A program made the position numbers and the translations under genes. The notes beneath the pieces were generated by a model. It ran no database searches, was not told the DNA's origin, and saw only the letters and a program-made list of their open reading frames with translations. A stretch of 60,110 nt of DNA, the filler included, from Jimgerdemannia flammicorona (Eukaryota): assembly GCA_003990765.1 (NCBI GenBank). It is 3 parts of 3 records of this genome, joined end to end, with 100 filler letters (N's around TTAATTAATTAA, not from the genome) between each part and the next. Parts side by side here need not be neighbours in the genome. Positions count along the whole stretch, not along the records: positions 1 to 19,972 come from RBNJ01001789.1; 2 more parts are not named here. One strand, 5' to 3'. This document shows positions 1-55,268 of this stretch, one piece after another; positions within the stretch are counted from its first letter, which is position 1; each line of letters starts with the position of its first letter.

Positions 1-315
1 CTGTTAGGTCCTACTCCTAACCCCATCACGAAATTTCCTAATTGGGTATTGTCTGCAGCGATACGCTGATTCAACTAAGCTGGTCTTAGTTTCTTGAACT
101 TCCTGAAATACGGAAAATCCTGAACATCCAGAACTAGTCCAGAAAAGGACTTTGGTTGAGACGTCAACCCGATCTTGAAATCAATAAGCGTAGAGGACGT
201 ACTCTATATGAAATTGATCTTGACCATAAGAAAACAGTCTTCCAGAATATCCAGAACTTCCAGAAAACCCTTCTAGAACTACATAACGGTCACCCTAAAA
301 AGTAACCCTCTTACA
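1..315 (+). mobile_element. 3' end of an LTR of Gypsy family A (partial, opposite orientation to the 10043-19972 copy), inserted into LINE ORF2
   Basis: Reverse complement of ~10043-10355 and ~18594-18905; ends ...CCCTCTTACA at 315, where the LINE ORF2 sequence begins abruptly. Confidence 0.93.
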
Positions 316-2862: not shown

Positions 2863-5800
2863 TTTTTTTTTTTTTTTTTTATAGTTACTCAGACTTCTTC
2901 CTTTATTAATACAGTCATCTATCCCATATATAATACACTAAGCCCACTCCTATCCAATCTTCCTAGGCCCCCACCCCCTCTTAATTAAAGACTACTAGGC
3001 CATTAACCACTTCCACCCACCCACCACTCTATCTACAAATATCTTCCACTAGACAGCAGCAACACCTACTCTGGGGACTCCATCCAACCCACCACCCTGT
3101 CAGTATATCTCCCACCAACCCCTCTCATCTTAACAACCTCTTCTGCAGACCCAGCTATCACCTCTCTTCAAAAATGAAGAGCCAATGTCCAGCTAGCCCT
3201 ACCCATATAGCTAAAACCCACCCTATAGTGAGCCATTCATTGCCCACCCCACCCACCAACCTAGTTCTCAAATCTTCCCAGTGACCCCTCTCCCCCTCTG
3301 GTCCCCTCTTCACACCCAGCCAGTCCCCTACCACTATCCAAAAGTCCCCCAGAACCTCACACTCTCTCAGCCAATATTCTGGCATCTGCACAAATCCCCC
3401 AACTTGTCCAACATTGTAACATGCTTCATATTCCAATAGACCACCGTCCACCAGATACTCAGTATGGAAATTCAATATGACATTCCTCCATAGTATCTGC
3501 CACCATACTACCCAGTACTTGGGAGGAAGCCATCTCCACATCTCAGCACTCCATGCCCAGACTTCTGCCCAATCCCAGTCCTTGCCAATTCTCACTGCTT
3601 ACCAACTGCTAGGCCAAAGATCCTGACCAAGTCCCCTCTGACACTCTACTCTATCACCAATATCAAATTCAATAAGAGGAGTGCCCCCCAGAAGCAATCT
3701 GTCCCATCTCTACATAGCTGGTCTCCATAGCATCTCTCCTTCATTGCTATGCCAGTGCAAGCCAATGCAGTGTGCTCCATCTGCTACTCCCCACCAGAAG
3801 TCTTTATACTACAGCCAATGGCTGCCACCCAGGTCCACCAGAGAAAGCAAAATCCCCCAAGGACCCCCTTGAGGAGAATCTCATCTCCCACACCTTCTGC
3901 ATCAATGGCACCCATCTCCCTCCCCTCAGTTCTACTACTTGCTTCAACCACCAAGCTCTCAGGCAGTATAGCCTCTTAGGAAAGTCCACCAGTTCTAGCT
4001 TCCCTTGAACTATGGGCATTGAAAGAGTTTCTCAACTGATCTGGGACTATCTTCCAGCCCAAATCCAGTCCCATCAGTCTCTTCACCACCTAAGCTAGAA
4101 AGTCCAAGTGATAGACAATATACTACAGCTTAGGGAATCAATAGATATTCAGAATCATTACTCCTTGAGTGTATCCCCCCAGATGGCTACCCTCCTCTCC
4201 CACCTGTAGTAAGACTGATCCATATACTGAAAGGAGGATACTCAGATACTGTACAACCTCTCCTGCTGGGACAATTGTTCCAATGACATCCCCTCCCACT
4301 AACCCATCTCCCAGCACCATTGTCTCACACTTATGCTAGTTGAGTTTCACTCCAGAGTATATCTCATATCATTCTACTGTCTCCTTAAGAGCCTCAACAT
4401 CCACCACTAATCCAAGTCCAACTACCATGTCATCTGCAAAGGCCCCTACCTTCCACACTACACCATAAATAGCAAGTCCTACTACCTTCTGCCAAATTCT
4501 ATCTATCAAAGGTTCCAAAGAAAGGGCATATAGAATAGGGGACAATGGATCCCCTTGAGGGACTCCTCTCCCCAAGGGAAACACCATACCCTGGTGACAA
4601 TTACACATCAGCACCACCCTACTTCCCTCCAACAAATTCAACATAGAAGCTTGAAATAGTGAGGGAACTCCTATTCTGTCTAGTACCTTGTCCAGCCACA
4701 CCCACCAAATACAGTCATAGGCCTTCTCCTGATCCAGAAAGACCAGTCTCCCATCCAATCCACTAGCCCTCACCCCTTCAATGACACCATGGACCCAGGC
4801 CATCCTATCCCTGATAAGTCTGCCTCCCACAAAGTCCTGCTGCTCCTCACCCAACATCTGTTGGGCTACCCTCTGTAATCTTGCCACAATTATCTTAGTC
4901 ACCATCTTTCTGTCCATATCCAGCAGTATGATCAGCCTCCAGTTCTTCCAATCCTCCCTCCTCCCCTTGTCCTTATACAATAGAGCCACCAGCCCTGGTC
5001 CTGACCCCTTAGGAGAACAAAATCACAGAGGGCCACCATCTCACCTAATACCCCAGAGACCCCCACCATCTTCTTCCAAAAGTCCCAAGGTAGACCATCC
5101 TCTCCTGGTACTATACCAAGCTTAGTTACTGCAAGGACTCTCTGGATCTCCTCTTTCTGGATCAGAAGGATCAAATCCCCCAGGCCCTCTACTTGCAGTG
5201 GCTCCTAGTTCACCAGAGTATCTTCAATAGCCTCTGCATCAGCACCCCCTTCCTTCTCACTCTACAGACCCCTCCACCACTCCTTCAGCAATTCCAAGAT
5301 CTATTGTGTACCATGTACCATTCTCCCCTCAGCATCAAGGACTCCATCCCACCAATGTCACACCCTTCTTGCCTGGAGGAGCCTTGACAAGTATCTAGTT
5401 GATCTCTCTCCCTCCTCAAGCCCCTGTCACCTCAACCTAGCTGCCATTCCTTTCACATGCATCTCCTCCTCCTCTCTCAACACCTGTTGCAACTCTATTA
5501 CTTCTAATCTAGCTCGCACCAACCTCCAATCATCCACCTCACCAGAGTTTATCAAATCCACCCATTCCATCTGCAATCTAACCAATCTCTTGGAAGTACA
5601 CCACACTCTTTTCCTTCTTTGCCTCCCAGTATCCCTACCAACTTCTCTCCAGTAGACCCTCACAGCCTCTTTCAACTTCATCCACTAGACATCCACTTGC
5701 AAGCCCTCATGTACCCAGCTTATGATCTTCACCTGAATGTCCTCTACCCAAAGGTCCCACAATACCTTCTCAGCTAGCAGAGAGGAGTTAAGGTGCCAAT

Positions 5801-8671
5801 GTCCAAGTCCATCTCCACTCCCCCCAAACTGCTCTTTCTTAACAGTCCCCAGTGGTCTGACCATGGGCACCACTCTACCTCCAGAGTTCTCCAAATATCC
5901 AGGCCCCAGCATTTGACCATCAGTATCCAGTCAATCCTTATACTAAGGCCATTCACCCAATGCATGTAAATCCTCTTTTCTCCCCACTGCATTCTGCCCA
6001 TATCTCCTAAGGAGCTAAGGTTCTCCACCTCCTCCTGCATCCAGGCTGCCACTCCTCCCACCAGCATTCCTCCCTCCATCAGTTCTATCTAACTGAGGAT
6101 TCCACACCATATTGAAGTCACCTTCCAGAACATCCACCCCATCCTCCAAGAATGTGCCCTCATCCAGCAGACCCTTAATCCATGTAATCTGCTCATTCCT
6201 AGCTACTGGGCAGTAGTAAGAGCCAACTCTCACTGACTCCCACCCAGGTTGACACCATTCCCCCCATATCAAACAGTTGCCCCAGCTTCTGATTCCACCT
6301 AATTTCCCTTTACCCCTCTGTACCAAAATTGCCACTTTGCCAATCCAAGCTGTAGCTCCTCCCCATTCCCTAGTCGATCCATATCATCCTTACATCATAC
6401 ATCCTGTAACAGAAAGAGATCAGCCTCCAATCCCTTAAGCCAAGTGAAAATGTTCTTCCACCACTCAGATCCCCATAATCCATTCACATTCAGAGAAAAA
6501 ATATTAGTTGTACTGTTCATTAGGAATAATGTTTAGAAGTAGGGTCCTGCACATCCTCTACAAATCCACATCCCTCCTCTCTTGTACCATGTCCAAGTTG
6601 TGTTCAGCAGCCAATCCCTCCTCTTCAGCCTCCTTTGCCTCCAATCTAACCAGAAGTTCAGCCATCTCCCCATCCTCCTTTTCTTCAAAGTCCTCATGAT
6701 ACTTCAGACAGGCCTCCTGCCAAAGCTTCAGACCATGATGCTCTGCCCAACAGTAGGTAGCCTGCTCATCAGCAATAACTGACAGCTCAGCCTCTCTCTC
6801 CTTATCAACTTCATACCCCTCCTCCTCCAGAAGAATTGTAAGCACCTCTACCTTCAGTGCCTCCACTACCCTGTCACTATACAGAATCTGTGCCCAATAT
6901 TCCTCACTCATCACTCTCAGGTCCACTTCTCCCAACTCTTCAGCTATAAGATTGTTCATCATCCTGCATATCTACAGTAGGTTTCCCACCTTCTTCCCTC
7001 CTGATGTCGCTGGCCTCTCAGCATCCAGCATTGTGGTGTTGGCCCCTACACTTGCAGTCTCATCCCACCCCTCCTCCAGGACATCTACCAGCTCATCTTT
7101 GCTAACTGCCACCACCTGTCCCCCTTTTGCTATGTCAGGAACTCCAAAGTGTACTTGCTGGGCACCATGCATCAGCACATTCTCTGCTGCCTTTCTCCTC
7201 TCAGCTGGACCCCTCCTGACAAGAGAGGGAGTATCATCCAATTCCTCTTCCCAGACTTCAAACATACCATCAGCATAAGGGTCATTGTGTGGCATCTTCC
7301 TGACTCCATCCAGGCCTTCCTCCCCATTCTTCTCTCCCTTACCAGCCCAGACACTCACTTCAGTACCTCCAGACTCCTTAGCTCCACCAGCACTCTTCTT
7401 TGCCCCTCCTTTCATGTCTGCCAACAACTCCCTCTGTCTCATATGCCCTTGAGCTCTCTCCCACTACCTCTTGTCAGTGTGAATACATTTCCCATCCACA
7501 ATTTCCAAATGTGTAGACTCTTCATACATCTTCCAGACCTTTGCCCTCTGCTCTACTGCCCCACTCATCTCCTCCAGAGCCTCCAACAGATCTATCTCCT
7601 CCTCCTCACTCTCTTTCACCCTTGACACCTTACAGATGAAGACCCCCCACAACATAACCAAAGGCCAGTCACTCATCTTCCTTGTGGCCTCTCTCTCTGC
7701 CAGTCTAATCCTAACATTAACATCACCAGTTCTGAAAGCAGTCCCCTCTCACATCTGGAATCCAATATCAACCACATTGCCATACTCTGCCATCACCTCC
7801 TCTACCCTCCTCCTAGTCTCAACCTTCATCACCATAGGCACCCCCTTTATCAGTAACTGAACCACTCTGGGGTCCTATCTCAAACACCATACTATAGGGA
7901 CCACTATCTCTCCTACCACTACTCCAGTCTTCAATACTTCCTCCAGTAGACCTGCCTTCTTAAAACCCACCTCCACTCTCTTCAATTCCTTCAGAAACTT
8001 CACTGAGGCAGCTCCAGCCACTTGCTCTAAAATAATCCCCAGAACTATCCTTACCATCACTGCCAAGCCCCAGAAGTACAAGATTGCTGCAAACTCTGAG
8101 ATCGACTTCTTGAGTAACAGTGCCACTGCTAGCCCCATCATACCATCAGCCAGGTCCCCTTTTCTCTTTGGTCCCATCCATCCAGTTTCACTATCAACAG
8201 TCACATCTGGGGTTTTTTTCCAGATTTTCCATCATGCCACCATCAGCAGTCCCCCCCCTACTTCCAGCAGCTGCTCTACCAGCCCTTCCACCCACTAACT
8301 GCTGAGCTACCTCCTCTACTTCTCCTTCCCTCTGCTTCCCCTTCCCCTCCATCCACTTGCCACGAGATCCAACAGACCATCTGCTAGCCTTCAGCATATC
8401 TGCAAAGCTTCTCCCCTTCTACTCTCTTGCTCCTCCCCCAGTATCTCCACCACTACCCAAACTGCCCTGCCCACTCAGACTACCAAGAGACCCCATACCT
8501 AAACTATAACCTTGTCCAACATGTTGCCAGTTGAAGGCTCTAGGTCTACCTGACCTAGTATGCATATCAGCTTGCTTGTTGGTTGCCATGACTTTAGTAT
8601 CTTTCTCCAATAAATACTTCGAAAGTGTGTTGTAAAAGTGTGTGTAATATGAGTGGTAACTGAGAAAGGTG
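2863..8671 (-). mobile_element. LINE (L1/Tx1-like) copy 2, essentially full length, degenerate; ORF1 ~8560-6558, ORF2 6520-~2990
   Basis: Poly(A) tail (T run 2863-2880) with AATAAA upstream; APE (FSLNVNGL, LEGDFNMV, RIDWIL, WSDH); RT (LYKDKG..DWKNWRLI, FLDQEKAYD, GVPQGDPLSPILY, AFADD); C-terminal zf-RVT-like remnant; flanked by an imperfect 11-bp TSD CCTCCAC(C/T)CTC (2852-2862 / 8672-8682). Confidence 0.92.
4330..5174 (-). pseudogene. Non-LTR reverse transcriptase domain of LINE copy 2 (frameshifted)
   Basis: ORFs 4932-5174 (PGEDGLPWDFWK) and 4369-4989 (DQEKAYD, QGDPLSP, FADD). Confidence 0.93.
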
Positions 8672-9492: not shown

Positions 9493-10727
9493 AGAACAGA
9501 ATGTCCATGCAGACCTCTCCCATGAAATGCACAGGTGGGTAAAAAACACTCCAGTTAGACATACCAAATTTACCTCAGACCCCTTTTCATTTCATGACAG
9601 TTAGGTCTAAGTCACTCATCAGAAAACATAATACCTTAGTTACACATATCCATTATGTTGAGAATTTGGGCAAAACTGCATAGCTAGCCATACAGAAACA
9701 AATTCTCTAAAATATATAAAGACACCGAAACACAGGATTCAGCTTTATAGAATTGTACTATCAGGGGTGGGAATTGCACTAGTTTCAATATGTTTTTCCA
9801 TTCATTGTTTGTTGCATCATACAACACCATCCTGTTTGGAGTTTTGCACCATAGATAGTAGTGCAATCCTATGGCTTTCAGACTGATTTTGCGAAATTGG
9901 TCACATAATCGGGATGACACGCTTTTGTCAACATTTACAGTCAAGAAAAGTGGTGTCCAATCGCAGATGACGACATGCATGTTATCGCCTAATATGACGA
10001 AATGACCAAAGGCAACATTGCCACAAGTATCTGTTATCATTGTGTAAGAGGGTTGCTTTTTAGGGTAACCATTACATAGTTCTGGAAGGGTTTTCTGGAA
10101 GTTCTGGATATTCTGGAAGACCATTTTCTTAAGGTCAAGATCAATTTCGTATAGAGTATGTCCTCTACACTTATTGATTTCAAGATTGGGTTGATATCTC
10201 AACCAAAGTCCTTTTTCAGACTAGTTCTGGATGTTCAGGATTTTCCATATTTCAGGAAGTTCAAGAAACTAAGACCAGCTTAGTTGAATTGGCGTATCGC
10301 TGCAGACAATACCCAATTAGGAAATTTCGTGACAGGGTTAGGAGTGGGACCTAACGGGGAGCAGATTTACTTAAGAGTGGTTTGTGGGTTATTAAATAGG
10401 TTTATTCACTATTCATGATATTGCTATACTAGGAGTAGTTGTGTAAAAGAATATTGTAGGAAAGTGCTCAGGAGTTGTGTTCGAATTGTTCAAGTCTTCA
10501 AGTCTGAGATTCTGAGGTCTGGGGGAGGGGGTATTTATACTAGTGAGGGGCTATTTGGACTATGCTAAATATGGATGTAGCACTAAGTGCCTTGCTGAGT
10601 CGGAATGCAGTCACGTAGTACAATAGTGATCTGATATGTCAAGAGATCATCTGACTGCTGAGTCAGTTCACAGTCACATCGTACAAGGCTAATCTAACTA
10701 TACTATGACTGCTAGGCTATTTATGGT

Positions 10728-11825
10728 TTAGGCACTGTCTGGGTAGTCTTCAATGACATCACTATCAATTGCATTATCTCTAATGAAGTAGTCATCTAGG
10801 AAGAGTGGTTCACGGATTACTTCTCCTTGTTCGCTGAGGTAGTAATACATTGGGACTTCATCTCCATCCCACAGAATAGCATTGTCTGTCTCATATGCTG
10901 GGTAAGGTGTTGGTGGGCAAAGGATGGGTGTATTGTCTTCACTTTCATCAGATTCACTGTCTGCGTACCTTCTATAGGTTACAGCACTATGAGTCATGGG
11001 GTTATAGTAAGCTAGCAGCTGTGGTTCATGTCACTCATACTCAGGTGGTGGAGTTGTTGGTTTGATTTCGAGAGTTGTCTGAAGGTACAGGTTGTGTTCT
11101 CCGGTCTCTTCATTGTAGTTGAAGTAATTAGGGGTGAATGCGGGTTGGTATTCGTGCCAGTGGTCATTGTCCCAATAAGTCTCATATACAGTTATGAACT
11201 GTTGTAAGTTCATCGGCAAGGTTGGCGGTGTAATCAGGGTTGGCAGAGATCCTTGGCTTGAGGTCATGTCTGCATCAGAGGGATCATTGTCTTCTGCTTC
11301 ATCTTCATCGAAGTGGATTATATCGTAGATATCCTTTATGGCATAACTGACTTGAGGCATTTGCAGGATATGGTTGTCAGGGTGCGAGAAGGTTCTGTCT
11401 GTAGTTTCAACATACTCGAGGTACTTGTGGTTGAGTTCTTGTATCATGTTGTCAATTTGGCAGTAGGACAAGGTAGTAACCATTTTGCTGGTAGTAACTC
11501 GGAGGTGGAGAATAAAGGTGTTGTACTCATAGAAGAGTTCTCAGTGTTTGCGGGTGATGAGCTTCTGGTGTTGAGATATCTGGGTAATGTCTGTATTGTG
11601 GTGGTGTTCAACCATGTCTTCCAGGAGGCAGCTGATCTGGTAGTAGCTTGAGATTTGTCTGATTCGGTGGGCCTCGCTAAGTATGTTCAGAGCATTCTAT
11701 CGGGCTTCCACGAAGTAGAGGGGTGCTAGGCTATGGATATTCATGAGGGGCAGAGGGAGTGTTGCTCGGTTGACAATGGCATTCCAAATGTCAGCACGGA
11801 TGTGGTTATAGATCTCAGTGGTCAT
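10728..11825 (-). pseudogene. LTR-embedded accessory ORF of element A (~365 codons; N-terminal helical domain plus acidic Pro/Tyr-rich tail), three C>T-type in-frame stops
   Basis: One frame from ATG 11825 through the listed ORFs 11031-11483 and 10728-10997; the TGA at 11033-11031 reads CAA in the 5' LTR copy (~19574), consistent with an ancestral CGA. Confidence 0.8.
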
Positions 11826-11889
11826 GTTTGTGTGTTTGCAAGTTGTGGTTGTTGTTTGTTTTGGTTCTCTGTTTCAACACATCTTGGTG

Positions 11890-12000
11890 CTCAGTATATA
11901 TGCATTTAATCCTGATTAGTAAGATTCCGTTTGTGTGGATCTTGTATTCTGTGACTTCGTGTTGACTCAGCTTTGTGCATTGTGACTTTGGTTTGACTCA
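11890..12000 (-). promoter_or_regulatory. Putative internal promoter for the LTR ORF: TATA-like TATATA (~11895-11900) and two TGACTCA (AP-1/Gcn4-type) sites at 11963 and 11994
   Basis: Motifs read directly; a C/A-rich leader (CAAACAACAACCACAAC...CAAACATG) leads to the ATG at 11825. Confidence 0.45.
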
Positions 12001-12082
12001 GCTTCATGATCAGGCAGGTGATTTCCAGATTTGTTCAGATGGTGACATGTGATTTCAGTGGCTTGGAGGTTGTGTGCTTACA

Positions 12083-12499: not shown

Positions 12500-12700
12500 T
12501 TCAGTTGTTCCAGGAATCATATTCCTGAACTAGGTCAGTAGCATTCTGGAGATTGGTCTTGGATTCCCAGATTGCATCATGGATCAGGTAACCTTTCCAT
12601 TTGACAAGGTACTCTGGGTGGCTCTTGTTGCCATGTTTGTTGAGGATCTGCTCAACTTCATATTCTTCTTGGTCATTGATAATGACAGGTACAGGTGGTT
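12500..12700 (-). pseudogene. Chromodomain at the integrase C-terminus
   Basis: Manual translation: EEYEVEQILNKHGNKSHPEYLVKWKGYLIHDAIWESKTNLQNA. Confidence 0.9.
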
Positions 12701-15700
12701 TGGTGGTTCGGTTTGGAAATAGTTCATCATCATTGTCATTGTATCACTTGAGATGTTGAACATTAAAGACTGGGTGAATCTTAATAGTGTCTGGTAGCGC
12801 CAGTTTGTAGGAGGTTGGAGAGACTTGTGCAATGACTTCAAATGGTCCAATGAACTTACTGTTCAGCTTTGTAGATGGTCTGTGCTTGAGGTTGTCCACT
12901 CGGTATCCTCAGATGTCTAGTAGAACCTTTTCTCCAATATCAAAGGTTTACTCTTGGTGGTGTTGGTTAACATACTGTGACTGTTGTTCTTGAGCTTGTG
13001 ATAAATTCTCAATTGCAATCTGGCTCAGATTACGCATTCAGAGTAGGAATTCTTCAACAGCTTCGACTGTGGAGGGTTCTTTGGTAGTTCGGATGAGTGT
13101 CAAAGGGGTGTTTGGATTTTGTCTGGTGTTGGCAAAGAATGGTGTCATTCTAAGAGAGGCTTGCTTGCTATTGTTGTAGGCAAACTCGACTGTGGTGAGG
13201 TATTCATGCCAATCATCTTGTCTATAGGAAACATAGTTCCTTAGCATTTGTTCTAGAGTTCAGTTCATTCTTTCGGTTTGGCTGTCAGTTTTAGGGTGAA
13301 AGGCTGTGGATAGTGCAAGTTTTATTCCAAGGTGTATATGGAGGGCTTTCCAAAAATGGCTGGTAAATTTCGGATCTCGGTCACTAACAATGATCTTAGG
13401 AAGACCATGATAGCAGAAGATGTTGTCAAACAAGAGTGTGGCTATATCTGGTGCTGTTGCAGTGGTAGTTGTTGGCACAAAGTGGGCTTGTTTGCTGAGA
13501 TAGTCCACAAAGACAACAATTGCATCTTTCCCATTCTTGGTTCGGGGTAGTTGTACAATGAAGTCCATAGAGATTTGTTCCCAATTAGCAGATGGTACTG
13601 GGATAGGGTGGAGTAAGCTGGGTTTTGCTAGTGTTGAGGACTTGTTCCGTTAGCAGGCATCACAGGAAGTGATGTAGGTCTTGAGCTGATCTGCTATGTG
13701 GGGCCAATAGAAGTTTCGGGAGATAACTTCATAGCATTTATCAAATCCTAAATGTCCAGCTGTAGGGGCATCATGACATTCAAATAGGATAGTCCTTCAG
13801 AGGTCCCAGTTGTTTGGGACATATAGTCTGTCCTTATAGTAGATAGCATTATCCTTGAGTTGGTATTGATTGTACCAGGTATACTTGTCAGCATCATCAT
13901 TGTTCAGGATTTCTTGGAGTGCTTGAGCTTCCTTATCATTTGCATATGCTGTGATAATTTGTTCTATGATGGAGTTGGTAACCAAGGTGAGAGTTTGGAT
14001 AACCTCTTTGATTGGTGGTCTGGAGATTGCATTGGCAACAATGTTTTCCTTGCTGGGGTGGTACTGGATTTTGTAGTCAAAGTTGGTAAGGACTTTCATC
14101 CATCTGGCTTGCTTTCGAGAAAGGGTAGCCTGGGTCTTGATGTTGACTAATGACTTGTAGTCAGTCAATATGGTGAAGTGTGCTCCTTCTAGGTATAGTT
14201 GCCATTTGATCAGAGTGTCTACAATGGCTAACATTTCCTTCTCGTGGGTTGCATAGTTAATTTCGGCATCATTGAACTTGCAGGAGTGATAGGCCACAGA
14301 GTGTCCTTCTTGTATGAGCACTGCTCTAAGAGCTAGGTCAGAGGCATCAGTAGTGACTTCATATGGTAGGGCAGGATTTGCTGCTTGAAGTACTGGAGTG
14401 GTTATCAGGGCATCCTTCAGTGCTTGAAAGGCAGTATCTTGTTTGGGTCCCCAATTTACAAGATTGTTGAAGTCTTTCTCTTATTTCATGGTCCAGGGTT
14501 ATTCTTGTTTCTTGCTGTACTTGGTCATTTGGGTGAGGGCAGTAGCGATTTTAGCAAAGTTGGCAACAAATTGCCTGTAATAGTTTGCTAATCCCAGGAA
14601 TGACTTGAGGTCTTTCAGCTTCTTGGGTGTGGGCCAATCTTTGATTGCAGAGATTTTGCTGGGGTCCACTTTGATTCCATTCGGAGTGACAATGTATCCA
14701 AGGAATTGAATTTCTTTCAGGAGAAATTTGCACTTGCTGAGTTTTGCAAAGAGTCAGTTTTCTTGGAGTTTCAGTAGTACTAGTTCAAGGTGTTCAAGAT
14801 GTTTCTCCAGGGTTTTGCTGAAGACTAGGATGTCATCAATGTAGACAACAATGAATTTGTCCAGGTATGGATGCAGAATGGTATTCATCAGTGTCTGGAA
14901 GGTTGCTGGAGCATTAGTTAAGCCAAAGGGCATAACCAGGAACTCGAAATGTCCATAGCTAGTTTGGAAAGCTGTCTTGTAGATATCTTCTTCTTTCATG
15001 GCAATTTGCCAGTAATCATTTCACAGGTCAAAAGAGCTTATGAATTGTGGGTTGGTGAGCCTATCGAATATTTCATCAATCCTTGGTAGTGGGCAACAGT
15101 TCTTGATGGTCTGTTCATTGAGATCACAGTAGTTAATGCACATTCGCAGGTCTCCTCCTTTCTTGACAACAAAGAGGACTGGTGCATCATAGGGTGATAT
15201 GCTGGGTCTGATGAATCCTTGTTCTAGGAGTTCGTCGATTTCTTTCTTGAGTGCATCAATTTCTCTTGGAGATATGTGGTAGATTGACTTGAAGGCTGGT
15301 TTGGCATCTGGGATAGTCTTGATTACATGGTCTACTGCTCATTTGGGAGGTAGGCTCTTCGGGAGCTTCTTTGGGAATATGTCTCAGAATTTCTGGAGTA
15401 GTGGTCTGACATGGCTGTCAACTTTGGAAAAATCTTCTTCAGAGTTCTCGGGTTCTCCTTTGGATGGTCTGATGGAGATGGCGAAGAGAGGGCATTTCTT
15501 GGCCAATTTTTTGAGTTATAGCTTATTGATGTGGGTGATCTTTGGTCCAGGGTCACTAGAGTTGAGTGAGTCCTTTTCACCTTGTAGTTTGAAGTTGTGG
15601 TGTCCTTTCTTGATGGTCAGAGAATGGTTTACCAAATCGATCATGGGGTTCTCTTGTTTCAACCATGGAGTCCCAAGAATAATTTTGTTGTCAGGGAGTG

Positions 15701-16058
15701 GTACGATTTGGAGAGTAACATGTACTCAATAGTCACTGATTCGGAAGGGTAGATTGTGGACTTCCTTGCTGATAATATGTGAGGTTCCATCAGCTGTAGC
15801 AACTACTTGAGTCTGCTATACTAGAGAGGTGAAGACCTTAAGTCTGTTGGCTGTTTCTTTGCTGATGAAGTTGCCTGAGGTACCACTGTCTATCATAATC
15901 TTGACAGGTGCTCGGTTGACAAAAGCTTTAAGTGTAAGCAGTTTGTCTAATCCAATGGTGGTGATTTCGGTTGTAGGAGCTTTCCTTCTGTTGGTTCTTC
16001 TTTGAGCCAGTTCATTGACACAAGAGAAGCAATCATCAATTATTCGAGAAGAGTACAT
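12700..16058 (-). pseudogene. pol: pol of element A: aspartic protease, RT, RNase H, integrase (multiple stops)
   Basis: [91 protein letters not shown]. Confidence 0.95.
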
Positions 16059-16164
16059 TCCAATGCCATGGGGGCATCAGCCACTTGGTACATATCCATC
16101 TTCGATTTTCTTGTAGAATTGTTCTTCTTTGTTCATGGTAGGTTGGGCTGGGGCTTTGTTTGAT

Positions 16165-16562
16165 AAGCCAAATCCTTTGGATCCTCAGATGGTGGGCAGT
16201 AGTTCAGGGACTTCCTTAACTATCAGAGTTGACTCAATTTTCTTGAATAGGATCTGGGCAATGCAGAAACCTATGGGGATCTTGAAGGGTATCTAACTAT
16301 GATTTCGGATGAGGACAATAATTTCACCTGTATAATCTTTGTCAATGACTCCTCCTTCTACTGAGAGTCCTTTCAATACTAGGCTGCTGCGACAGCATAT
16401 TCTTCCAACATGTCCTTCAGGGATTTGAATACTGATTCCTGTATAAACTTGCTTGACTTCTCGGTTGGAGACTGTGGCTTCTTCGGCTGCATACAGATCA
16501 TATCCAGCTGCTTTTTGACTTCCTTTGATTGGGGCCTTAGTAGTTTGTCTTAACTTGACAAA
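16165..16562 (-). pseudogene. dut: dUTPase domain of element A, between the Gag zinc knuckle and the protease
   Basis: Manual translation: KAAGYDLYA..TGISIQIPEGHVGRICCRSSL..VEGGVIDKDYTGEI..IAQILF..(R)GSKGFG; all five trimeric dUTPase motifs. Confidence 0.9.
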
Positions 16563-16599
16563 GTCCAGTGTTCTGGTGGTCAGGTTGTTGAGATGGTGC

Positions 16600-18490
16600 A
16601 GAGTGGTAACAGTTGCTCATATTGCTGTTCGGGGTTTTCGGTTAGGGCAGGTGCTGGCCATGTGTCCTGTCTTTCGGCAATAGAAGCATGCTCCGCTTCT
16701 TCGAAGTTCATTCCTTTCTCCTTCAGTGAGTTTCTTGAAGGTACTCAGCTGGGTGGGTTCATGATTTCTGGGTGTCCAAGAGTGGATGTTGAGGGAGCTT
16801 GGGATACTTCATGCTTGGGTTCTTCTTTCTTGGTCCAAGTCTTTTCCTTGTTGTTGAATTGTCTTCGGGGCAGAATGGGTCCAGCTGTTAGGATTTGCTT
16901 GACCATAGTCTTGATTCTTGCCAGGCACCATTGTTGGTGATCGCAACCAAATAGGTGGCCTTGTTCTCGGATTTTTCTAGTAAGCCATTCAGGCAGAGCA
17001 TCGAATAAATGGTCTGCTCTTGTACCATTTCGTGCTTCATCATTGGCAATATATCCTAGGCCAACAGTGTTCAGGAGTGACTCGAGTTTTGTACAGAAGG
17101 TTTCAAATTCTTCCTTGCCATATACATCAAATTTGAGGTTGCAGAGTTTTACTCGAGATTCGACAACCATGGTTTTGCTGTGGTATTGAGCAATCATGAG
17201 TTGTTTGAGTCCAGGGGCTGCAGGATGGGCTCCATATCCTAGGGTATTGTTTGCTGCATTCTGAGCAACTACTGCAGGTCAGGTGTCCCATGTGAGGGGT
17301 TTTTCAGGAAGGGTTCGCCACCATTCTTTAGCAGGTCCTCGGAAGAATATAACAACTCAGCAGACATAGGCTGTAGTGGTAGCAAAGAGTTGTTCCAGGG
17401 TGTGGTCTTGATTGTTTGTCAGAATGTGGTTGGCAACTCGCTCATTGGTCCATTGATTGGCTTCAAAGTTAGTATCAACTACACTAATGAAGCTTTGGAC
17501 TTCTTGTGCAGTACCATTAAAGGTAGGTAGGCTCAGATTTTTGGTAGGTTGGGTCTGTTTAGCTAAGGCAGTAATGGTTGCTGCCATTATGGCTACCTGA
17601 GTTGTAAGGTCTAGAATCTGTTGGTTCGCCATGTTGTTTACTGGAGGCGGTTGGACTACTGGTAATGGTGTTACTGGTACTACTTGAGGTACTGGTGCAG
17701 AGTGTGATGGGGTTCTTTGGGTCTGTGTAAGTTGCTGGAGTAGTATTTGTGGGTCTGGAGTAAGGGCTTGATAGATAACTGTTTGTTGTTATGTAGGTGT
17801 GTTCTGGTCTGATAGAGGTGTGTCTCCTTCGGTGGTATATCTGGGATCGAATTCACTGAGATACTCCTCCTTCTCTTCAGTTTGGTCCCCATGTAATTGG
17901 GTTTGCTTGGTGTCAAAGTAGACAGAATCAGTTATATATCTGATTTCGGATGGACTTAATTCAAAGTCAAGTTCAGGTTCGGTATTGGTTTCAGATTCAG
18001 GTAGAGTAGTGGTAGGGCCTGCTTCTGGTTCGGGGTCTGGTAGCTGATGAAGGGTTTCTCTTGCTTCTTCCTTAAGAATATGGCGGGCCTTGCTATTCTG
18101 GAATTGGTAGTATAACACAGTCTTGGTCCTGGTATGGTGGAAGTCGGTAAAGTTGAGCCACTTGGCTATAGAGGCTTGGGCTTCATAAGGAACTAAGGCT
18201 AGAAAGACTGCTGCTGGTTGTCCTAGGTCACTCGGATTTGTAGAGCTGACAAAACTCTTATTGAGAAGAATAAAGAAGGCTTCAATAAGACCTTCTTCAT
18301 CTTGACTTGCTGGGTGTAGTGCAAGGAGTTCGGTGAATAGGGTTTCGCCTATTTGCTGGTTTAACCGGAGTACTTCTTTTTTTGAATGAAGTTTATCCCA
18401 CTTATTGCAGATATAGAGGTCAAATTGTCCTTGTACATCAGGTTCAATTCTCTCCAGATTGTCAGATGGTTCGGATAAATTCCAGTTCAG
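16600..18490 (-). pseudogene. gag: gag of element A with a long N-terminal extension and CCHC knuckle
   Basis: LPTFNGT..SFI (capsid start) in 17357-17632; CFYCRKTGHMASTC at ~16650-16690; the 17789-18118 ORF is in the same frame; the start position is approximate. Confidence 0.8.
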
Positions 18491-18578
18491 AGGTTGGGCT
18501 TTATACCAACTTGTAGGAATTCACAGAGGGGTTTGTAGCAGGGTGAGGAAGCATCTTGAAGTGGAATTGGATTGTAAA

Positions 18579-18593: not shown

Positions 18594-19972
18594 TGTAAGA
18601 GGGTTGCTTTTTAGGGTAACCATTACGTAGTTCTGGAAGGGTTTTCTGGAAGTTCTGGATATTCTGGAAGACCGTTTTCTTAAGGTCAAGATCAATTTCA
18701 TATAGAGTATGTCCTCTATGCTTATTGATTTTAAGATCAGATTGACATCTCAACCAAAGTCCTTTTTCGGACTAGTTCTGGATGTTCAGGATTTTCCATA
18801 TTTCAGGAAGTTCAAGAAACTAAGACCAGCTTAGTTGAATTGGCGTATCACTGCAGACAATACTCAATTAGGAAATTTCGTGATGGGGTTAGGAGTGGGA
18901 CCTAATGGGGAGCAGATTTACTTAAGAGTGGTTTGTGGGTTATTAAATAGGTTTATTCGCTATTCATGATATTGCTATACTAGGAGTAGTTGTGTGAAGG
19001 AATATTGTAGGAAAGTGCTCAGGAGTTGTATTCGAATTGTTCAAGTCTTCAAGTCTGAGATTCTGAGGTCTAGGAGAGGGGGTATTTATACTAGTGAGAG
19101 GCTATTTGGACTATGCTAAATATGGATGTAGCACTAAGTGCCTTGCTGAGTCGGAATGCAGTCACGTAGTACAATAGTGATCTGACATGTCAAGAGATCA
19201 TCTAACTACTGAGTTAGTTCACAGTTATGTTATACAAGACTAATCTAACTATACTATGACTGCTAGGCTATTTATGGTTTAGGCACTGTCTGGGTAGTCT
19301 TCAATGATATCACCATCAATTGCATCATCTCTAATGAAGTAGTCGTCTAGGAAGAGTGGTTCACAGATTACTTCTCCTTGTTTGCTGAGATAGTAATACA
19401 TTGGGACTTCATCTCTATCCCATAAGATAGCATCATCTGTCTCGTATGCTGGGTAAGGTGTTGGTGGGTGAAGGATGGGTGTATTGTCTTCACTTTCATC
19501 AGATTTGCTGTCTGCGTACCTTCTATAGGTTACAGCACTATGAGTTGTAGTGTTGTAGTAAGCTGGTGGCTGTGGTTCATGTTGCTTATACTCAGGTGGT
19601 GGAGTTGTTGGTTCAATTTCGAGAGTTGTCTGAAGGTACAGGTTGTGTTCTCCGGTCTCTTCATTATAGTTGAAGTAATCAGGAGTGAATGCGGGTTAGT
19701 ATTCATACCAGTGGTCATTGTCCCAATAAGTCTTGTATATGGTTATGAACTATTATAAGTTCATCGGCAAGGTTGGCAGTATGATCAGGGTTGGCAGGGA
19801 TCCTTGGCTTGAGGTCATGTCCGCATCAGAGGGATCATTGTCTTCTGCTTTATCTTCATCGAAGTGGATTATATCGTAGATGTCCTTCATGGCATAACCA
19901 ACTTGAGACATTTGCAGGATATGGTCGTCAGGGTGCGGGAAGGTTCTGTCTGTAGTTTCAACATACTTTTTT
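18594..19972 (-). repeat. 5' LTR of element A (truncated by the contig end), with the second copy of the LTR ORF
   Basis: Colinear with 10043-~11415; differences are mostly transitions. Confidence 0.93.
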
Positions 19973-20072
19973 NNNNNNNNNNNNNNNNNNNNNNNNNNNN
20001 NNNNNNNNNNNNNNNNTTAATTAATTAANNNNNNNNNNNNNNNNNNNNNNNNNNNNNNNNNNNNNNNNNNNN
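19973..20072. other. Artificial contig linker N44-TTAATTAATTAA-N44
   Basis: Six-frame stop linker, identical to 40044-40143. Confidence 0.97.
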
Positions 20073-20139
20073 TTTTTTCTTTTTAAATCAATGTCCGAAT
20101 TTTTTTCCTAATAACATTCGAAATATACATATCCTCCAG

Positions 20140-21107
20140 CTTCTAAGCCTGGGCCGGAGCGCAAATCTTGCTACAATTGCCATTTTTGCCATCAAGTTTA
20201 CCCAAACACCACCTGGAAGCATTGCCAAATCAATTTCCCGGATGCCCCAAACCTCATGGAGAAAAGGCCTTACAAATCAGACATTAGGCATGCTTTCGCT
20301 GCGGCCAACAAATGCATTAAGAAAGTACATGACGACCAACTGAGGCAAGAAGTCATAAGAGCGATAGAAAACCGTATGAAAATCGTGGAACATTCGTCAT
20401 ACCACACCGGCTTCAAGGTGAATGCCAAAGCGTGGAACAAGCGAGGTTGTCCAGATGGAATTGTCATCATAGATGAACACGAAAAACTGCTGGCCATATT
20501 TGAACAAGTACCGGTGAAGAACGACAAAATGCTTTATATGTGACTGATGGATGGCAGGCTTGTGCATTTTGTTGAGGGGGGTGGTGGTGGAGGAGATGGA
20601 GAGGTGGGAGAGGTCAGTGCTGGTGGAGGAGTCGGCGCCAGTGGAGAGGTCGGTGGAGAGGTCGGCGCGGGGGTGGTCGGCGCGGGGGAGGTCGGCGCGG
20701 GGGAGGTCGGCGCGGGGGAGGTCGGCGCGGGGGAGGTCAGCACAGGGGAGGTCGGCGCAGAGGAGGTCGGTGTGGAGGAACATGGGGAGGTCGGCGTGGG
20801 GGAGGTCGGCGTGGAGGAACATGTGGAGGTCGGTGCGGGGGAGGTCGGCGCGGAGGAACATGGGGAGGTTGGCGCGAAGGAACACGGGGAGGTTGGCGCG
20901 GAGGAACATGGGGAGGTCAGCGCGGAGGACGAAATGGAGGTTGGCACGGAGGAGGTCGGCCCAGAGGAGGATATGGAGGAGGAGGATATAGAGGAAAGCA
21001 GTTTGGAATATATGGAGGAAGATGGTTCGGAATATGAGAAGGAGGAGGATCAGTTGGTTTATAGCGATGAAGAGGAGGATCAGTTGGTTTATAGCGATGA
21101 AGAGTAA
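20140..21107 (+). pseudogene. Exon or ORF of unknown function: Cys/His motif, a ~100 aa globular-looking region, (EVGAG/EVGAEEHG)n repeats and a Glu/Asp tail; one internal TGA (20541-20543)
   Basis: ORFs 20256-20543 and 20547-21107 share a frame, which stays open upstream to a branch-point/CAG acceptor at 20137-20139; reads RKSCYNCHFCHQVYPNTTWKHC. Confidence 0.55.
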
Positions 21108-21266
21108 GATCTGTTCATACCGGTAAGTTCTTTATTTTCCTGATTTACTTCCTATTTATTTCCGATTTCATTTTGATTTCTGATTTCTAATTATGTTTCT
21201 GTTTGTTTATTCTAAATATATCTTAGATGTGCAATATTTTTTTTTTGGTGCCTTGTAGCTTAAAGG

Positions 21267-29089: not shown

Positions 29090-32000
29090 AAATAGAATAG
29101 AACTGAATCTATAAAGGACAGAAGATTGTACAAGTAATATTCATAAAGATTAAGATTCCCCAACTACAAGAGGTCTCTAAACTGACTCAAGATACAAGAC
29201 AAACTAAAGAATTTAGAAGCTCAGATAAGAAAGAAGTGCATCTTTTCCAGATTAATTACTTTAAGAAAAATACTCCTCAGCAAGTATACTATCAATCAGT
29301 CAAACTATACAAGAATCTCATCCTAGAACCAGAAGAGCAGACTATCTTCAAAATCTTTATACCATCTAATTCTAAAAATCTCTTCTTCAAACTCAATAAG
29401 AACATCAAGAATAAGGATATATATTTCCTAATAAGATAAACTCTATACACTCTTGAGCAATCAACCAAAGCTAAGAAAGCCTCATTTTGCTAAAAGAAAC
29501 CATTATAGGCTATCTGGTGTCCTACCTCAATCTGATACTCAGAGAAATTTATAAACTAATCCTATTAGAAAATAGCAGATCTCAAAAGAAAGAAAAGACC
29601 TTTTTATGATCAAAGAGAAAGTAAAGCCTTCCATCAATATTAAAGAAGAATTGATAACTCAGTAATAATAATATGTAACTAGTAGAACTCCTTCATAAAT
29701 ACTAGAATATCTTTACTATAGACTATAACAATCTACTATATAACCTATTATACTACTATAGCATAAATATAGGAAATATAATACCTATTCAACAGAAGTC
29801 TTATAGATTACTCTATTATCTAAAGAAATTTGAAAAAGAATATATTCAGGAACTCTTAGTCAATAGAGTTATCTGACTCCATGAGCCAGTCCTATACTTA
29901 TTATATCTAAGAAAGAAGAATAGAGACTCTGTATAGACTACAGAAAACTTAACTTAGTAATAGAAAAAGATATCTACTCTTTGCTCAGAATTGATGATCT
30001 CCTAGACCAATTATAAGATATCAGATATAGATTATTTTGTAGGATTTTATGAGATTCTTATAGATCTTAAGGATATTCAGAAAACAGCTTTCCTTACCCT
30101 TGAAAATCTATTTGAATATCTCTAAATGTCTTTTAGACTCTGCAATATATCCCCAACCTTCCAGAAAATAATGAACTCAGTTTATATCTTACTAGTCTAC
30201 TACTGTCTGATTATATATATAGATAATTTCAATATCTATTCAATAAATTTTGAAGAATATCTATACTATCTAGAAGAATTCTTCCAGCTTACCTATAAGA
30301 ACTACCTGAAGCTCAATACTAAGAAATACTACTTTGGAAAACAGAAACTTGAATTTCTTAAATTTATTATTTCTAAAGAAAGAATCTATACAGACTCAAA
30401 GAAAACTGAGAAGATCAACAACTGACTAGTACTCAAGACTCAGAAGGAATTACTATTATTTCTAATACTAGTATTCTACTATAGAAGATTTATCAAGGAC
30501 TTTGCCCAAATTGCTGCTCTAATTTGAACTTTTCTTAAGAAAGAAGTACTATATAAATAGACAAAACCATAAGAATTAGCCTTTAGAGTACTTAAGTAAT
30601 ATATAGCACTAATTCTTGTATAATCCAACCTATAGAAGCTATTTCTTTTATATATAGATACCTTCAAAGATAGCTTTAGAGTAGTTTTAGCCCAAGAAGG
30701 ATCTGATAAGTAGTACTATATAATAGCTTATGCAAGCTGAGCTACCAACTAACAGTAAACCAATTATAGTAACATTAAACTGGAATGACTTACAGTTATA
30801 TATATAGTTACTCTGTTTAATACTATCTTATTAAAAAAAGATTCACTTTGATAACCTACCATATTACTCTTAAATAGTCATTCAACTACAAAAAACCTAC
30901 TAGAATCCTTACTCACTGGATTCTTATCTTATAATAATATTAATATGCTTTCTTATTAATCCCAATAAACCAGAAGAAAGGTATATTGAAGAATCATACT
31001 CTAAAGGAAGTTCTTATAATCACTAATATACAAGAAGACCTCATCTGATAAGAATATCAGAAAGCCCACCAAGGACAAGCAAATATAGAAGAAAAGCTAT
31101 AAATAACATATATACTAATACTGGCTCTATCTCAGAATATAAGTTTGAGATATACTCAAGAAATATAATATCTACCAGAAGTACTAAAGAAAGAAGAATT
31201 ATCAAGTATTATTATAATCAATTGTACTACTAGATAATATCTTTTAGAGATAGAGAGTATATAGATATTATTGAACTTCTGTCAGTTATACTAAAAAGAA
31301 ATAAATATATCTTAGTATTTATAAAACATCTAACCAAATAGCCTGAAGTCTTCTCAATAAAAATTTCTGATATCTTAACCATTGTTGGCCTCCTTTATAG
31401 TCTTATACTCAGATATAGACCTTTAGAAGAACTTATTTCTGACTGAGGTACAGAATTTATCAATAATATAATTACAAGTTATACTTAAATTTATAAGATC
31501 CACCTCAACTAAACCACATTATACTACTCTTAAACTAATAGTATAATAGAATAAATAAACTAGACTATCAAGAAAGAACTTGCTCAAATAAATCCTATCA
31601 ACTGGAATCTCTACTTATCTGAGATCCTATGGAAAATTCAGAATATCTCTACTATCTCTACTAAATAAAAGTTATTCAAGATAATATTTACTAAGAATGT
31701 CAGAACTACTGATTATAAGAATCTTGGAGATCTCCTCAAAAAGGCAGAAAAAATACATAATTAAGTCTGAGCTCAGATAATTAAGATTCAGGAAAGACAA
31801 AAGTAGTATTATAACTAGAAATAAAAGGATCTGAAGATCAATATTGGAGATTAAGTACTAGTTTGGAGAAATATAATTAAAATAAACTTTACTACCAAAC
31901 TAGAGTCCAAATAGAAAAAACCTTATCTTATATATAATAAAACTAGCATCTATTTAAAAAACATAGATAGATATACTCTAAGAACTATAGTCTATATTAA

Positions 32001-40043: not shown

Positions 40044-40143
40044 NNNNNNNNNNNNNNNNNNNNNNNNNNNNNNNNNNNNNNNNNNNNTTAATTAATTAAN
40101 NNNNNNNNNNNNNNNNNNNNNNNNNNNNNNNNNNNNNNNNNNN
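40044..40143. other. Artificial contig linker N44-TTAATTAATTAA-N44
   Basis: Same as 19973-20072. Confidence 0.97.
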
Positions 40144-44100: not shown

Positions 44101-44429
44101 CCTATGAGTTCAGTTGAGAAAAGGCACCAGATGTCTTATGATAGTTCCTTTCAGTAAGATGATAGTCTCCCAACTTTGGTTAGTTGCTCAGGAGTGTACT
44201 GGGTTTATTTTGTTGAGGAATGTGTGTCCCTCTATGTCCAGATGAGGAATATCTTCCTTGGGTTCAAAGAAAAGGTTTCTGGAGTTGGGTAGTACAAAGA
44301 TTTCGAAGGTTATTTGTTCTCTGGGCTCTAGGATAAGATTCTTGTATAGTCTGACTAGTTGTTGGTATACTTACTGAGGAATATTTCTCTTGAGGTAGTT
44401 AACTTGAAGGAGGTGTACTTCCTTCCTAT

Positions 44430-44800
44430 CTGAACTTCCAAATCCCTTGGCTTGTTTTGTTCCTTCAGTTAGTTCAGAGACTTCTTGTAACTGTGGGGTC
44501 TTGACTTTCATGAAGACTACTTGGGCAATCTTCTGTCCTTTAATAATTCAGTGCCATTCTGTACTACTGTTGTGTAGAATGACCTTGATTTTGCCTGTGT
44601 ATCCTGGGTCAATGGTTTCTCCTTCCACAGTTATTCCTTGTCTGGTAAGTCCAGACCTTGAGGTCAGTTGGATATAAGATCCTTGAGGTGGCTGCATGGC
44701 TAATTTAGTTCTGATCATAAAGGTTTTTCCAGGTTTGGTAGATTCATCCTCTAGACTGTGAAGATCATACCCTATATCTTCTGGGTGGGCTTTGGTCAGG
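44430..44800 (-). pseudogene. dut: dUTPase domain of element D, between the protease/insert and RT
   Basis: AHPEDIGYDL, TSRSGL, VEGETIDPGYTGKI, KIAQVVF, KGFGSS. Confidence 0.9.
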
Positions 44801-55206: not shown

Positions 55207-55268
55207 CGGTTAGTGGCTAACCAAAACACCTCTTTAATATACGCTATACTACTCTACGCGCAAAAGAG

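Follow-up and report, generated by a model that had tools for sequence, protein, structure and literature searches.

We identified a 365-codon open reading frame (ORF) lying entirely inside a long terminal repeat (LTR) in a 60,110-nucleotide stretch of DNA from Jimgerdemannia flammicorona (assembly GCA_003990765.1; hereafter, the window). The LTR belongs to a degraded Ty3/Gypsy chromovirus with a dUTPase domain, which runs on the minus strand of the first of the window's three pieces. We propose, with slightly less than even confidence in the reading as a whole, that selection has kept this ORF as an accessory gene wholly in U3, the part of the LTR upstream of the genomic transcription start, and that the copy in the window is dead. 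The three pieces are ~19.97 kb each and are joined by linkers (N44-TTAATTAATTAA-N44) at 19973–20072 and 40044–40143. Features were not read across these joins, the first of which cuts the 5′ LTR of the element.

The ORF stands in sense orientation, with its ATG 257 nt from the start of the LTR and its stop codon ~685 nt from the other end (Table 1). Its frame contains four stops in 366 codons, the terminal one included, while the remaining sense frames hold 16 and 38. When the ORF sequence was simulated with a first-order Markov model, stops numbered 22.7 ± 4.6 with a minimum of 8 in 5000 runs, and on this comparison a chance opening of the frame was rejected. The nearest upstream in-frame stop lies 16 codons ahead of the ATG. 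Scored with the codon frequencies of the element's own gag-pol, the ORF frame reached +75 bits, while the other five frames fell between −2 and −112. The initial annotation had described a frame free of frameshifts and interrupted by three stops (TAG, TGA, TGA), beginning 257 nt inside the LTR and ending about 190 nt before the main TATA box. All of its coordinates check: the frame ends 189 nt before that box, TATAAATA, the three stops fall at codons 43, 95 and 265, and the ORF aligns without frameshift to both the 5′ LTR copy and two intact database proteins.

Those two proteins came from a word-indexed search of 5.8 billion proteins, which returned one match per length class (P0002 near in length, P0004 shorter). 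P0004 is an intact protein of 128 amino acids from a 1180-nt JGI contig, annotated as 'hypothetical protein'; it matches ORF residues 1–128 at 83% identity and begins at the same ATG. P0002, likewise intact, has 247 amino acids and derives from a 998-nt ENA contig. It aligns with ORF residues 115–364 at 162/250 identities (65%) and 207/250 positives (83%). The alignment contains two gaps, each 2 residues long, and P0002 stops at the position where the ORF does. Where the window has stops, the relatives have amino acids: in P0004, codon 43 is Trp and codon 95 is Arg, and in P0002, codon 265 is Gln. Searches of metagenome, viral and genome contigs with queries from the relatives, P0004 and P0002 included, found no DNA locus encoding them.

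We compared the ORF–P0002 pair with simulated neutral decay of the window's codons to 65% identity (3 × 1000 runs). The simulated frames acquired a mean of 3.0–5.1 stops and stayed stop-free with a probability of 0.004–0.031. Positives among them were 74–76%, with a maximum of 81.5%, compared with the 83% observed. An open frame with conservative replacements between diverged copies, the mark of purifying selection, was thus found at the protein level.

Other copies of the element tell of the same frame. Of 20 listed public runs, four were compared with the window, the other 16 having small shares; at a likeness of at least 80%, contigs of these four (3950, 450, 341 and 507 pieces) leave no part of the ORF uncovered. 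They vary from the window at 624 places. Among the best-supported 40 of these, 21 are ORF places, and the variants there recode the window to residues of P0004, P0002 or the 5′ LTR, the change of TAG to TGG at codon 43 included. At that place, 11698, the letter that gives TGG accounts for 407.3 of a depth of 410.7 in 29 contigs of X1 and for 85 of 85 in X6. Among 12 of the 22 indel entries only two fall in the ORF, though the ORF makes up 47% of the covered stretch, and these two form a +1/−1 pair, 6 nt apart, in a single contig. On these sequence comparisons the ORF is very probably a genuine coding gene. The claim of the initial annotation that a real, formerly open gene sits wholly inside the LTR is borne out by the Trp, Arg and Gln that the relatives have at its stops and by the 29 X1 contigs reading TGG at codon 43.

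The frame might instead be non-functional: it could have opened by chance in A/C-rich sequence, or be the decaying remnant of a host gene fragment that was captured and that the element can do without. That would fit a protein with no recognised domain or fold, a tally of just two relatives in very large protein collections, and two window copies that are both dead and evolving without constraint. It would leave a stop depletion far beyond chance to be accounted for, together with start and stop codons common to the relatives, codon usage equal to that of the element's gag-pol, and the failure of a representative-protein search to find any host-type homologue. It fits no better with a 65%-identical relative that is open, differs by in-frame gaps only and has replacements more conservative than all 3000 neutral simulations. 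We consider a non-functional frame very improbable.

Of the differences between the paired LTRs, 88 of 89 are transitions. If the ancestral base is assumed to be C or G, sites mutated in either LTR make up 45/86 of CpG, 30/192 of CpA, 11/143 of CpC and 2/189 of CpT, and the observed/expected CpG ratio in the LTR is 0.37. This is a pattern of methylation-type hypermutation, and the divergence of the LTRs therefore overstates the age of the insertion. Codon 265 illustrates the process. It reads TGA in one LTR and CAA in the other, which the initial annotation had taken as alternative decay products of CGA; TG in one LTR where the other has CA is the signature of an ancestral CG, in agreement with that view. 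All three window stops are one transition away from the relatives' residue or from the inferred CGA. The 5′ LTR copy, which spans codons 137–365, has three other stops (TAA, TAG and TAA). The window copy is dead, and what killed it is the C>T and G>A decay seen throughout the element.

The two LTRs align without gaps over 1374 bp (10043–11416 against 18594–19967) at 93.5% identity. The ends expected of an LTR element are in place: the LTR termini are TG...CA, a primer-binding site lies just past the 5′ LTR, and the 3′ LTR is preceded by a polypurine tract. Contigs of other copies agree with these limits: their cover begins at ~10043, the LTR end at 10043/10045 is joined straight to the primer-binding site in X2 and X6, and contigs break or join exactly at 12082. 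The upper 666 bp, which hold ORF codons 1–136 and the proposed promoter, are assigned to the LTR because of the polypurine tract, the terminal inverted repeat and the contig breaks and joins at 12082. In X1 and X6, loose contig ends at 10724 were translated by eye from the minus strand; they carry the frame on to DSI-stop (YPDSI-stop in X6), and P0002 ends in the same way. This places the 65%-identical form, too, beside the non-coding part of the LTR, and it is not a free host gene. When four proteins were searched against the window by tblastn, they matched at the two LTR copies only. The ORF is almost certainly inside the LTR, codons 137–365 by virtue of the duplicated copy and the remainder on the boundary marks.

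Within the LTR, TATAAATA is followed 126 nt on by AATAAA, and both lie downstream of the ORF. Because a TATA box and then a single AATAAA are the usual layout of U3 and R, the ORF would sit upstream of the genomic start. The motifs make this placement in U3 likely. The initial annotation had put the ORF there, which is plausible given the conserved TATAAATA and the sole sense AATAAA downstream of the ORF.

A different arrangement would follow if the only promoter stood near 11900. The ORF would then occupy a very long R/U5 leader and be the cistron with which the genomic RNA begins, while the TATAAATA at 10539 would have no role. The ATG is indeed preceded by TATATA and two TGAGTCA sites, and some LTR retrotransposons, such as Ty1, begin gag translation inside the 5′ LTR. 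This arrangement needs an R of ~1.5 kb, as transcription would begin near 11870 and the poly(A) site lie past 10401, and a first cistron of 365 codons would be expected to hinder gag translation. It also leaves aside that TATAAATA and the only AATAAA, 126 nt on, are identical in both LTRs in the classical U3–R arrangement. We regard it as improbable.

TGASTCA occurs four times in the LTR, where ~0.4 would be expected, and 13 times in the window, against 11.06 per 60 kb from shuffles. Two of the LTR sites form a duplicated TGAGTCA pair ~1.45 kb from the main TATA box and ~140–170 nt from the ORF ATG. There is no AATAAA between the ORF ATG and the main TATA box. The motifs give slightly less than an even chance that the ORF has its own promoter in the 257 nt that separate the LTR start from the ATG, its transcript being polyadenylated at the single LTR AATAAA. 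The initial annotation had argued for such a promoter. The TATATA and the TGAGTCA/TGACTCA sites on which it relied are present, but one of the four TGASTCA sites was made by decay, and the evidence is weaker than claimed. As a separate observation, the stretch at 11958–12048 (minus strand) with the duplicated 31-bp unit varies among copies: one X9 contig skips 82 nt (11958 to 12041), and several contigs have other letters at 12031–12048.

The same gene in the same place could also do without a promoter of its own. As a 3′-proximal gene of the genomic RNA, it would depend on the main promoter of the 5′ LTR and on a spliced or otherwise subgenomic RNA, in the manner of retroviral sag and nef, and the ORF copies in the 5′ LTR and in solo LTRs would be silent passengers. 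U3 reaches both LTRs solely via the 3′ end of the genomic RNA in the retroviral replication scheme, and a 3′-proximal reading is the default for any U3 gene. It shares all the coding and placement evidence set out above, and it gains from the putative nature of the promoter motifs upstream of the ATG and from the one TGASTCA site that is a decay artefact. Against it stand the position of the ORF start, 257 nt inside the LTR with no overlap with the end of pol and with room for a promoter, and the duplicated TGAGTCA pair, so much nearer to the ATG than to the main TATA box. No splice signal is known, though none was searched for. We hold expression from the 5′ LTR alone to be somewhat unlikely.

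The protein itself offers few clues. It is strongly acidic (isoelectric point 4.4; 60 Asp and Glu against 18 Lys and Arg), contains 29 Tyr and 26 Pro, and has a grand average of hydropathy (GRAVY) of −0.60. It has no hydrophobic segment: the maximum 19-residue Kyte–Doolittle mean is 1.14 for P0001, 0.97 for P0002 and 0.57 for P0004, all under ~1.6. The N-terminal ~140 residues are predicted to be helical. The C-terminal ~225 residues consist of conserved aromatic and proline-rich blocks with variable acidic linkers between them, and both in-frame gaps relative to P0002 fall in the linkers. A Pfam scan of P0001 and P0002 gave 0 families at E ≤ 1, a PDB sequence search gave 0 chains at E ≤ 10, and a profile of the C-terminal 251 positions run against 1.84 billion representative proteins found no relative but P0002. 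In the ESM Atlas, P0002 had no usable feature match, its own model having a predicted local distance difference test score (pLDDT) of 0.39 and a best template modelling score (TM-score) of 0.30; the matches of P0004 scored 0.93, but with 145–155 shared features, which makes them unspecific. By sequence, then, this is an orphan protein and not a captured gene, with no host-type homologue in the representative-protein search.

These elements can be assembled into a mechanism. Selection would retain an accessory protein gene wholly inside the U3 of the family. Transcription of the ORF would start near 11870 and yield an mRNA of ~1.5 kb that runs from its own promoter to the LTR AATAAA, so that every LTR, even a solo one, would combine promoter, ORF and poly(A) signal in one self-contained unit. 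The soluble acidic product could act on the element's transcription or silencing, its acidic-aromatic tail behaving like an activation domain. Judged by its composition, the protein could conceivably regulate in trans how its own element is transcribed or silenced, although we think this role doubtful. We put still less weight on the full version, in which the LTR would be a complete RNA polymerase II gene whose trans-acting factor, spread at two copies per insertion, acts on the LTRs of the family by activation or anti-silencing. Solo LTRs produced by recombination would stay expressed, and they and the dead copies would feed living ones. With its dUTPase beside the protease, such a retrotransposon would have come independently to the genome plan of mouse mammary tumour virus (MMTV).

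Several observations weigh against the reading of a selected, separately expressed U3 gene. The openness of the frame is pieced together from proteins of 128 and 247 residues that overlap by 14 residues, with no one intact full-length copy. P0002 starts at the residue aligned with M115, and its subfamily may encode a shorter product. Proteins in databases are open by definition, which is an ascertainment bias for both P0002 and P0004. The two window copies decay freely, with 31 non-synonymous and 18 synonymous codon differences, and the LTR pair differs at 56 of 689 ORF bases against 33 of 685 non-ORF bases. The upper 666 bp of the LTR have no second copy in the window. As for the promoter, its motifs are read from one mutated, C>T-rich copy, in which decay creates TA-rich motifs, and the ancestral state of TATATA is not visible among the best 40 of 624 variant rows. 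Two of the four LTR TGASTCA sites represent one duplication, and an ancestral state is shown for the site at 10659 only. The site at 10990–10996, inside the ORF, was rejected as a binding site, since the other LTR has CA for its TG and decay made it. The AlphaFold models are of low confidence (pLDDT 32 for the whole protein, 4 rows; 54 for the N-terminal 128 residues, 2 rows), which leaves the proposed function without structural support.

Table 1. Coordinates of the LTR-borne ORF, its LTR and the carrier element (positions along the window)
Feature	Position	Strand	Remarks
LTR-borne ORF, 365 codons + TAA, dead copy	11825-10728	-	ATG 11825-11823, TAA 10730-10728
Stop 1, codon 43, TAG	11697..11699	-	other copies TGG (Trp); P0004 W
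Stop 2, codon 95, TGA	11541..11543	-	P0004 Arg
Stop 3, codon 265, TGA	11031..11033	-	5′ LTR CAA, P0002 Gln
3′ LTR, complete, 2040 bp, TGTAAG...CTTACA	12082->10043	-	from alignment, termini, contig breaks
5′ LTR, linker-cut	18594..19971	-	carries ORF codons 137-365
Polypurine tract adjoining 3′ LTR	12096-12084	-	
Primer-binding site, begins TGG	18590-18579	-	3 nt past 5′ LTR; same junction in contigs of other copies
Third LTR copy, last 313 bp	3..315	+	opposite orientation, 92-93% identical; same terminal base
LTR start to ATG, 257 nt, proposed promoter and leader	11826..12082	-	TATATA, mini-ORF, C/A-rich leader
Two TGAGTCA sites	11963-11969 and 11994-12000	-	direct duplication, 31-bp spacing
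TATATA	11900-11895	-	70 nt before ATG
Three-codon mini-ORF	11882-11874	-	
TGACTCA upstream of main TATA	10659..10665	-	ancestral; 5′ LTR has G>A form
TATAAATA, presumed main promoter and U3 end	10539-10532	-	identical in both LTRs; only conserved one
AATAAA, presumed poly(A) signal	10406-10401	-	only sense-strand one in LTR; conserved in 5′ LTR (18952-18957)
Internal region, degraded	12501..18520	-	order: unknown ORF, gag-like with CCHC, dUTPase, protease, RT, RNase H, integrase, chromodomain
Unknown ORF, internal region	18520-17789	-	
Gag-like region with CCHC knuckle	16808-16617	-	
dUTPase domain PF00692	16616-16293	-	E 2.2e-22; between CCHC knuckle and protease
Protease	16076-15816	-	weak match, E 2.8e-4, below curated cut-off
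Reverse transcriptase (RT)	15338-14754	-	RVT_1 at 15020-14754, E 1.4e-20
RNase H	14480-13797	-	RT_RNaseH, E 3.9e-29
Integrase	13649-13260	-	rve, E 7.4e-10
Chromodomain	12743-12501	-	PF00385 Chromo, E 2.4e-14; downstream of rve

The carrier can be classified from its internal region. Its domains follow the Ty3/Gypsy order of protease, RT, RNase H and integrase, with integrase after RT, and a chromodomain C-terminal to the integrase identifies it as a chromovirus. The best relatives of the RNase H ORF are 40–51% identical, accompanied by distant plant retroelement proteins. The 5′ flank of the element is lost at the contig join, and a target-site duplication is therefore out of view. No primer-binding site follows the third LTR copy at 3–315. 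Between the primer-binding site and the gag-like region, a stretch of 243 codons (17789–18520, minus strand) is free of stops, while the rest of the element is broken up. This frame matches no Pfam family and has no similarity to the LTR-borne ORF (best E = 1.0); it may encode the N-terminal end of gag or be a further orphan ORF.

Genes that reach into an LTR are known from retroviruses. The 3′ accessory genes nef of human and simian immunodeficiency viruses (HIV/SIV) and bel/bet of foamy viruses lie partly in U3 of the 3′ LTR and begin upstream of the LTR. They only overlap U3, whereas the ORF described here has its start and stop both inside the LTR. The closer parallel is MMTV sag, likewise a complete sense ORF of a few hundred codons inside the LTR and doubled in each integrated copy; it has extra promoters within U3. 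The parallel extends to the dUTPase, which in this element lies beside the protease, in the position of dut-pro. The consulted portion of PMC11998498 describes Sag as 'LTR-encoded', under purifying selection and a type II membrane protein, and notes that MMTV also encodes a dUTPase (dut-pro). The likeness stops at the protein and its vehicle. We found no sequence relation to Sag (neither a Pfam family at E ≤ 1 nor a PDB chain at E ≤ 10 was matched), the strongly acidic ORF protein has no hydrophobic segment that could make it a type II transmembrane protein, and the ORF is carried not by a retrovirus but by a Ty3/Gypsy retrotransposon that has a chromodomain and lacks env.

Retrotransposon families are also known to carry orphan genes elsewhere. 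The additional ORFs (aORFs) of Grande, RIRE2, Retand and Boty and ORF0 of Retrosat2 are, in the sections consulted of PMC7264820 and PMC3485330, lineage-restricted orphans of unknown function that have no relatives beyond the elements and sit in the internal region, where they either follow pol and precede the 3′ LTR or come ahead of gag. Ours is similarly an orphan ORF carried by a retrotransposon family but, set against those sections, differs in lying in the LTR itself and not in the internal region. As to its presence across the family, contigs of four runs cover the ORF stretch and there are two independent database proteins. Cassandra, Helenus and Ajax, as presented in the excerpted text of PMC10886601, have small-RNA genes in their LTRs and so share a gene-like unit in the LTR with two copies per insertion. 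As far as that excerpt goes, theirs are small, derived from non-coding RNA and carried by non-autonomous elements, whereas here a protein gene of 365 codons accompanies a full, if degraded, gag-pol.

Among related elements, the chromoviruses of Postia, Phanerochaete and Tuber have, in the available part of PMC2864245, the Gypsy domain order, a chromodomain and a dUTPase, the same make-up as our carrier. That part of the source refers to an 'add. ORF' only in a figure legend, without location, and describes no LTR-borne ORF. PMC3248453 makes no mention of dUTPase or additional ORFs. Two candidate precedents were rejected: the 'ORFs within the LTRs' of PMC6673714 are ORFs between LTRs, and the U3 variation of crapaud is non-coding and spans <200 bp (PMC10787394). 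Our literature search found no protein ORF inside an LTR of a non-retroviral LTR retrotransposon, in a coverage that mostly left out subscription journals, so an earlier description is possible. An accessory ORF in the LTR itself is a position known from MMTV and otherwise undescribed in the literature found.

Retroelements crowd all three pieces of the window. In the first, units at 333–2864 and 5452–7982, ~5.1 kb apart and 68% identical, are C-rich on the plus strand (GC skew about −0.5) and are accompanied by an RVT_1 frame on the minus strand at 4369–5022; they are an old tandem or nested retroelement arrangement. Just past the first contig join, a 244-codon open frame (20397–21131, minus strand) extends over G+C-rich short tandem repeats (~20600–20980), and the neighbouring frame at 20115–20543 (plus strand) matches no Pfam family. 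Another Gypsy-type element is present in two copies of opposite orientation, at 29094–30928 and 42701–44560, which are 74% identical. Its RT_RNaseH lies at 42401–43213, and the copy at 29094–30928 is embedded in very A+T-rich sequence (26–29% G+C). A Ty1/Copia element at 55221–59810 (plus strand) retains long open frames, with gag (Retrotran_gag_2), CCHC and then a frame of 744 codons that contains integrase and RVT_2 (E 7.4e-69), and looks much younger than the Gypsy element studied here. No tRNA genes and no matches to Rfam families were found in the 60-kb window.

Accessory genes of LTR retrotransposons are poorly understood and, in the sources consulted, are described only between the LTRs. 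A gene borne by the LTR is doubled with each insertion and survives the LTR–LTR recombination that deletes gag-pol. In genome and metagenome annotation it would pass for an orphan 'hypothetical protein', the label that P0004 already bears. Sharing both an LTR ORF and a dUTPase with MMTV would amount to convergent evolution of a retrovirus and a retrotransposon. If the ORF does have its own promoter, solo LTRs would be dispersed coding genes and not regulatory debris, and the arrangement would bear on the origin of orphan genes and on how a retrotransposon family may act in trans on its own control.

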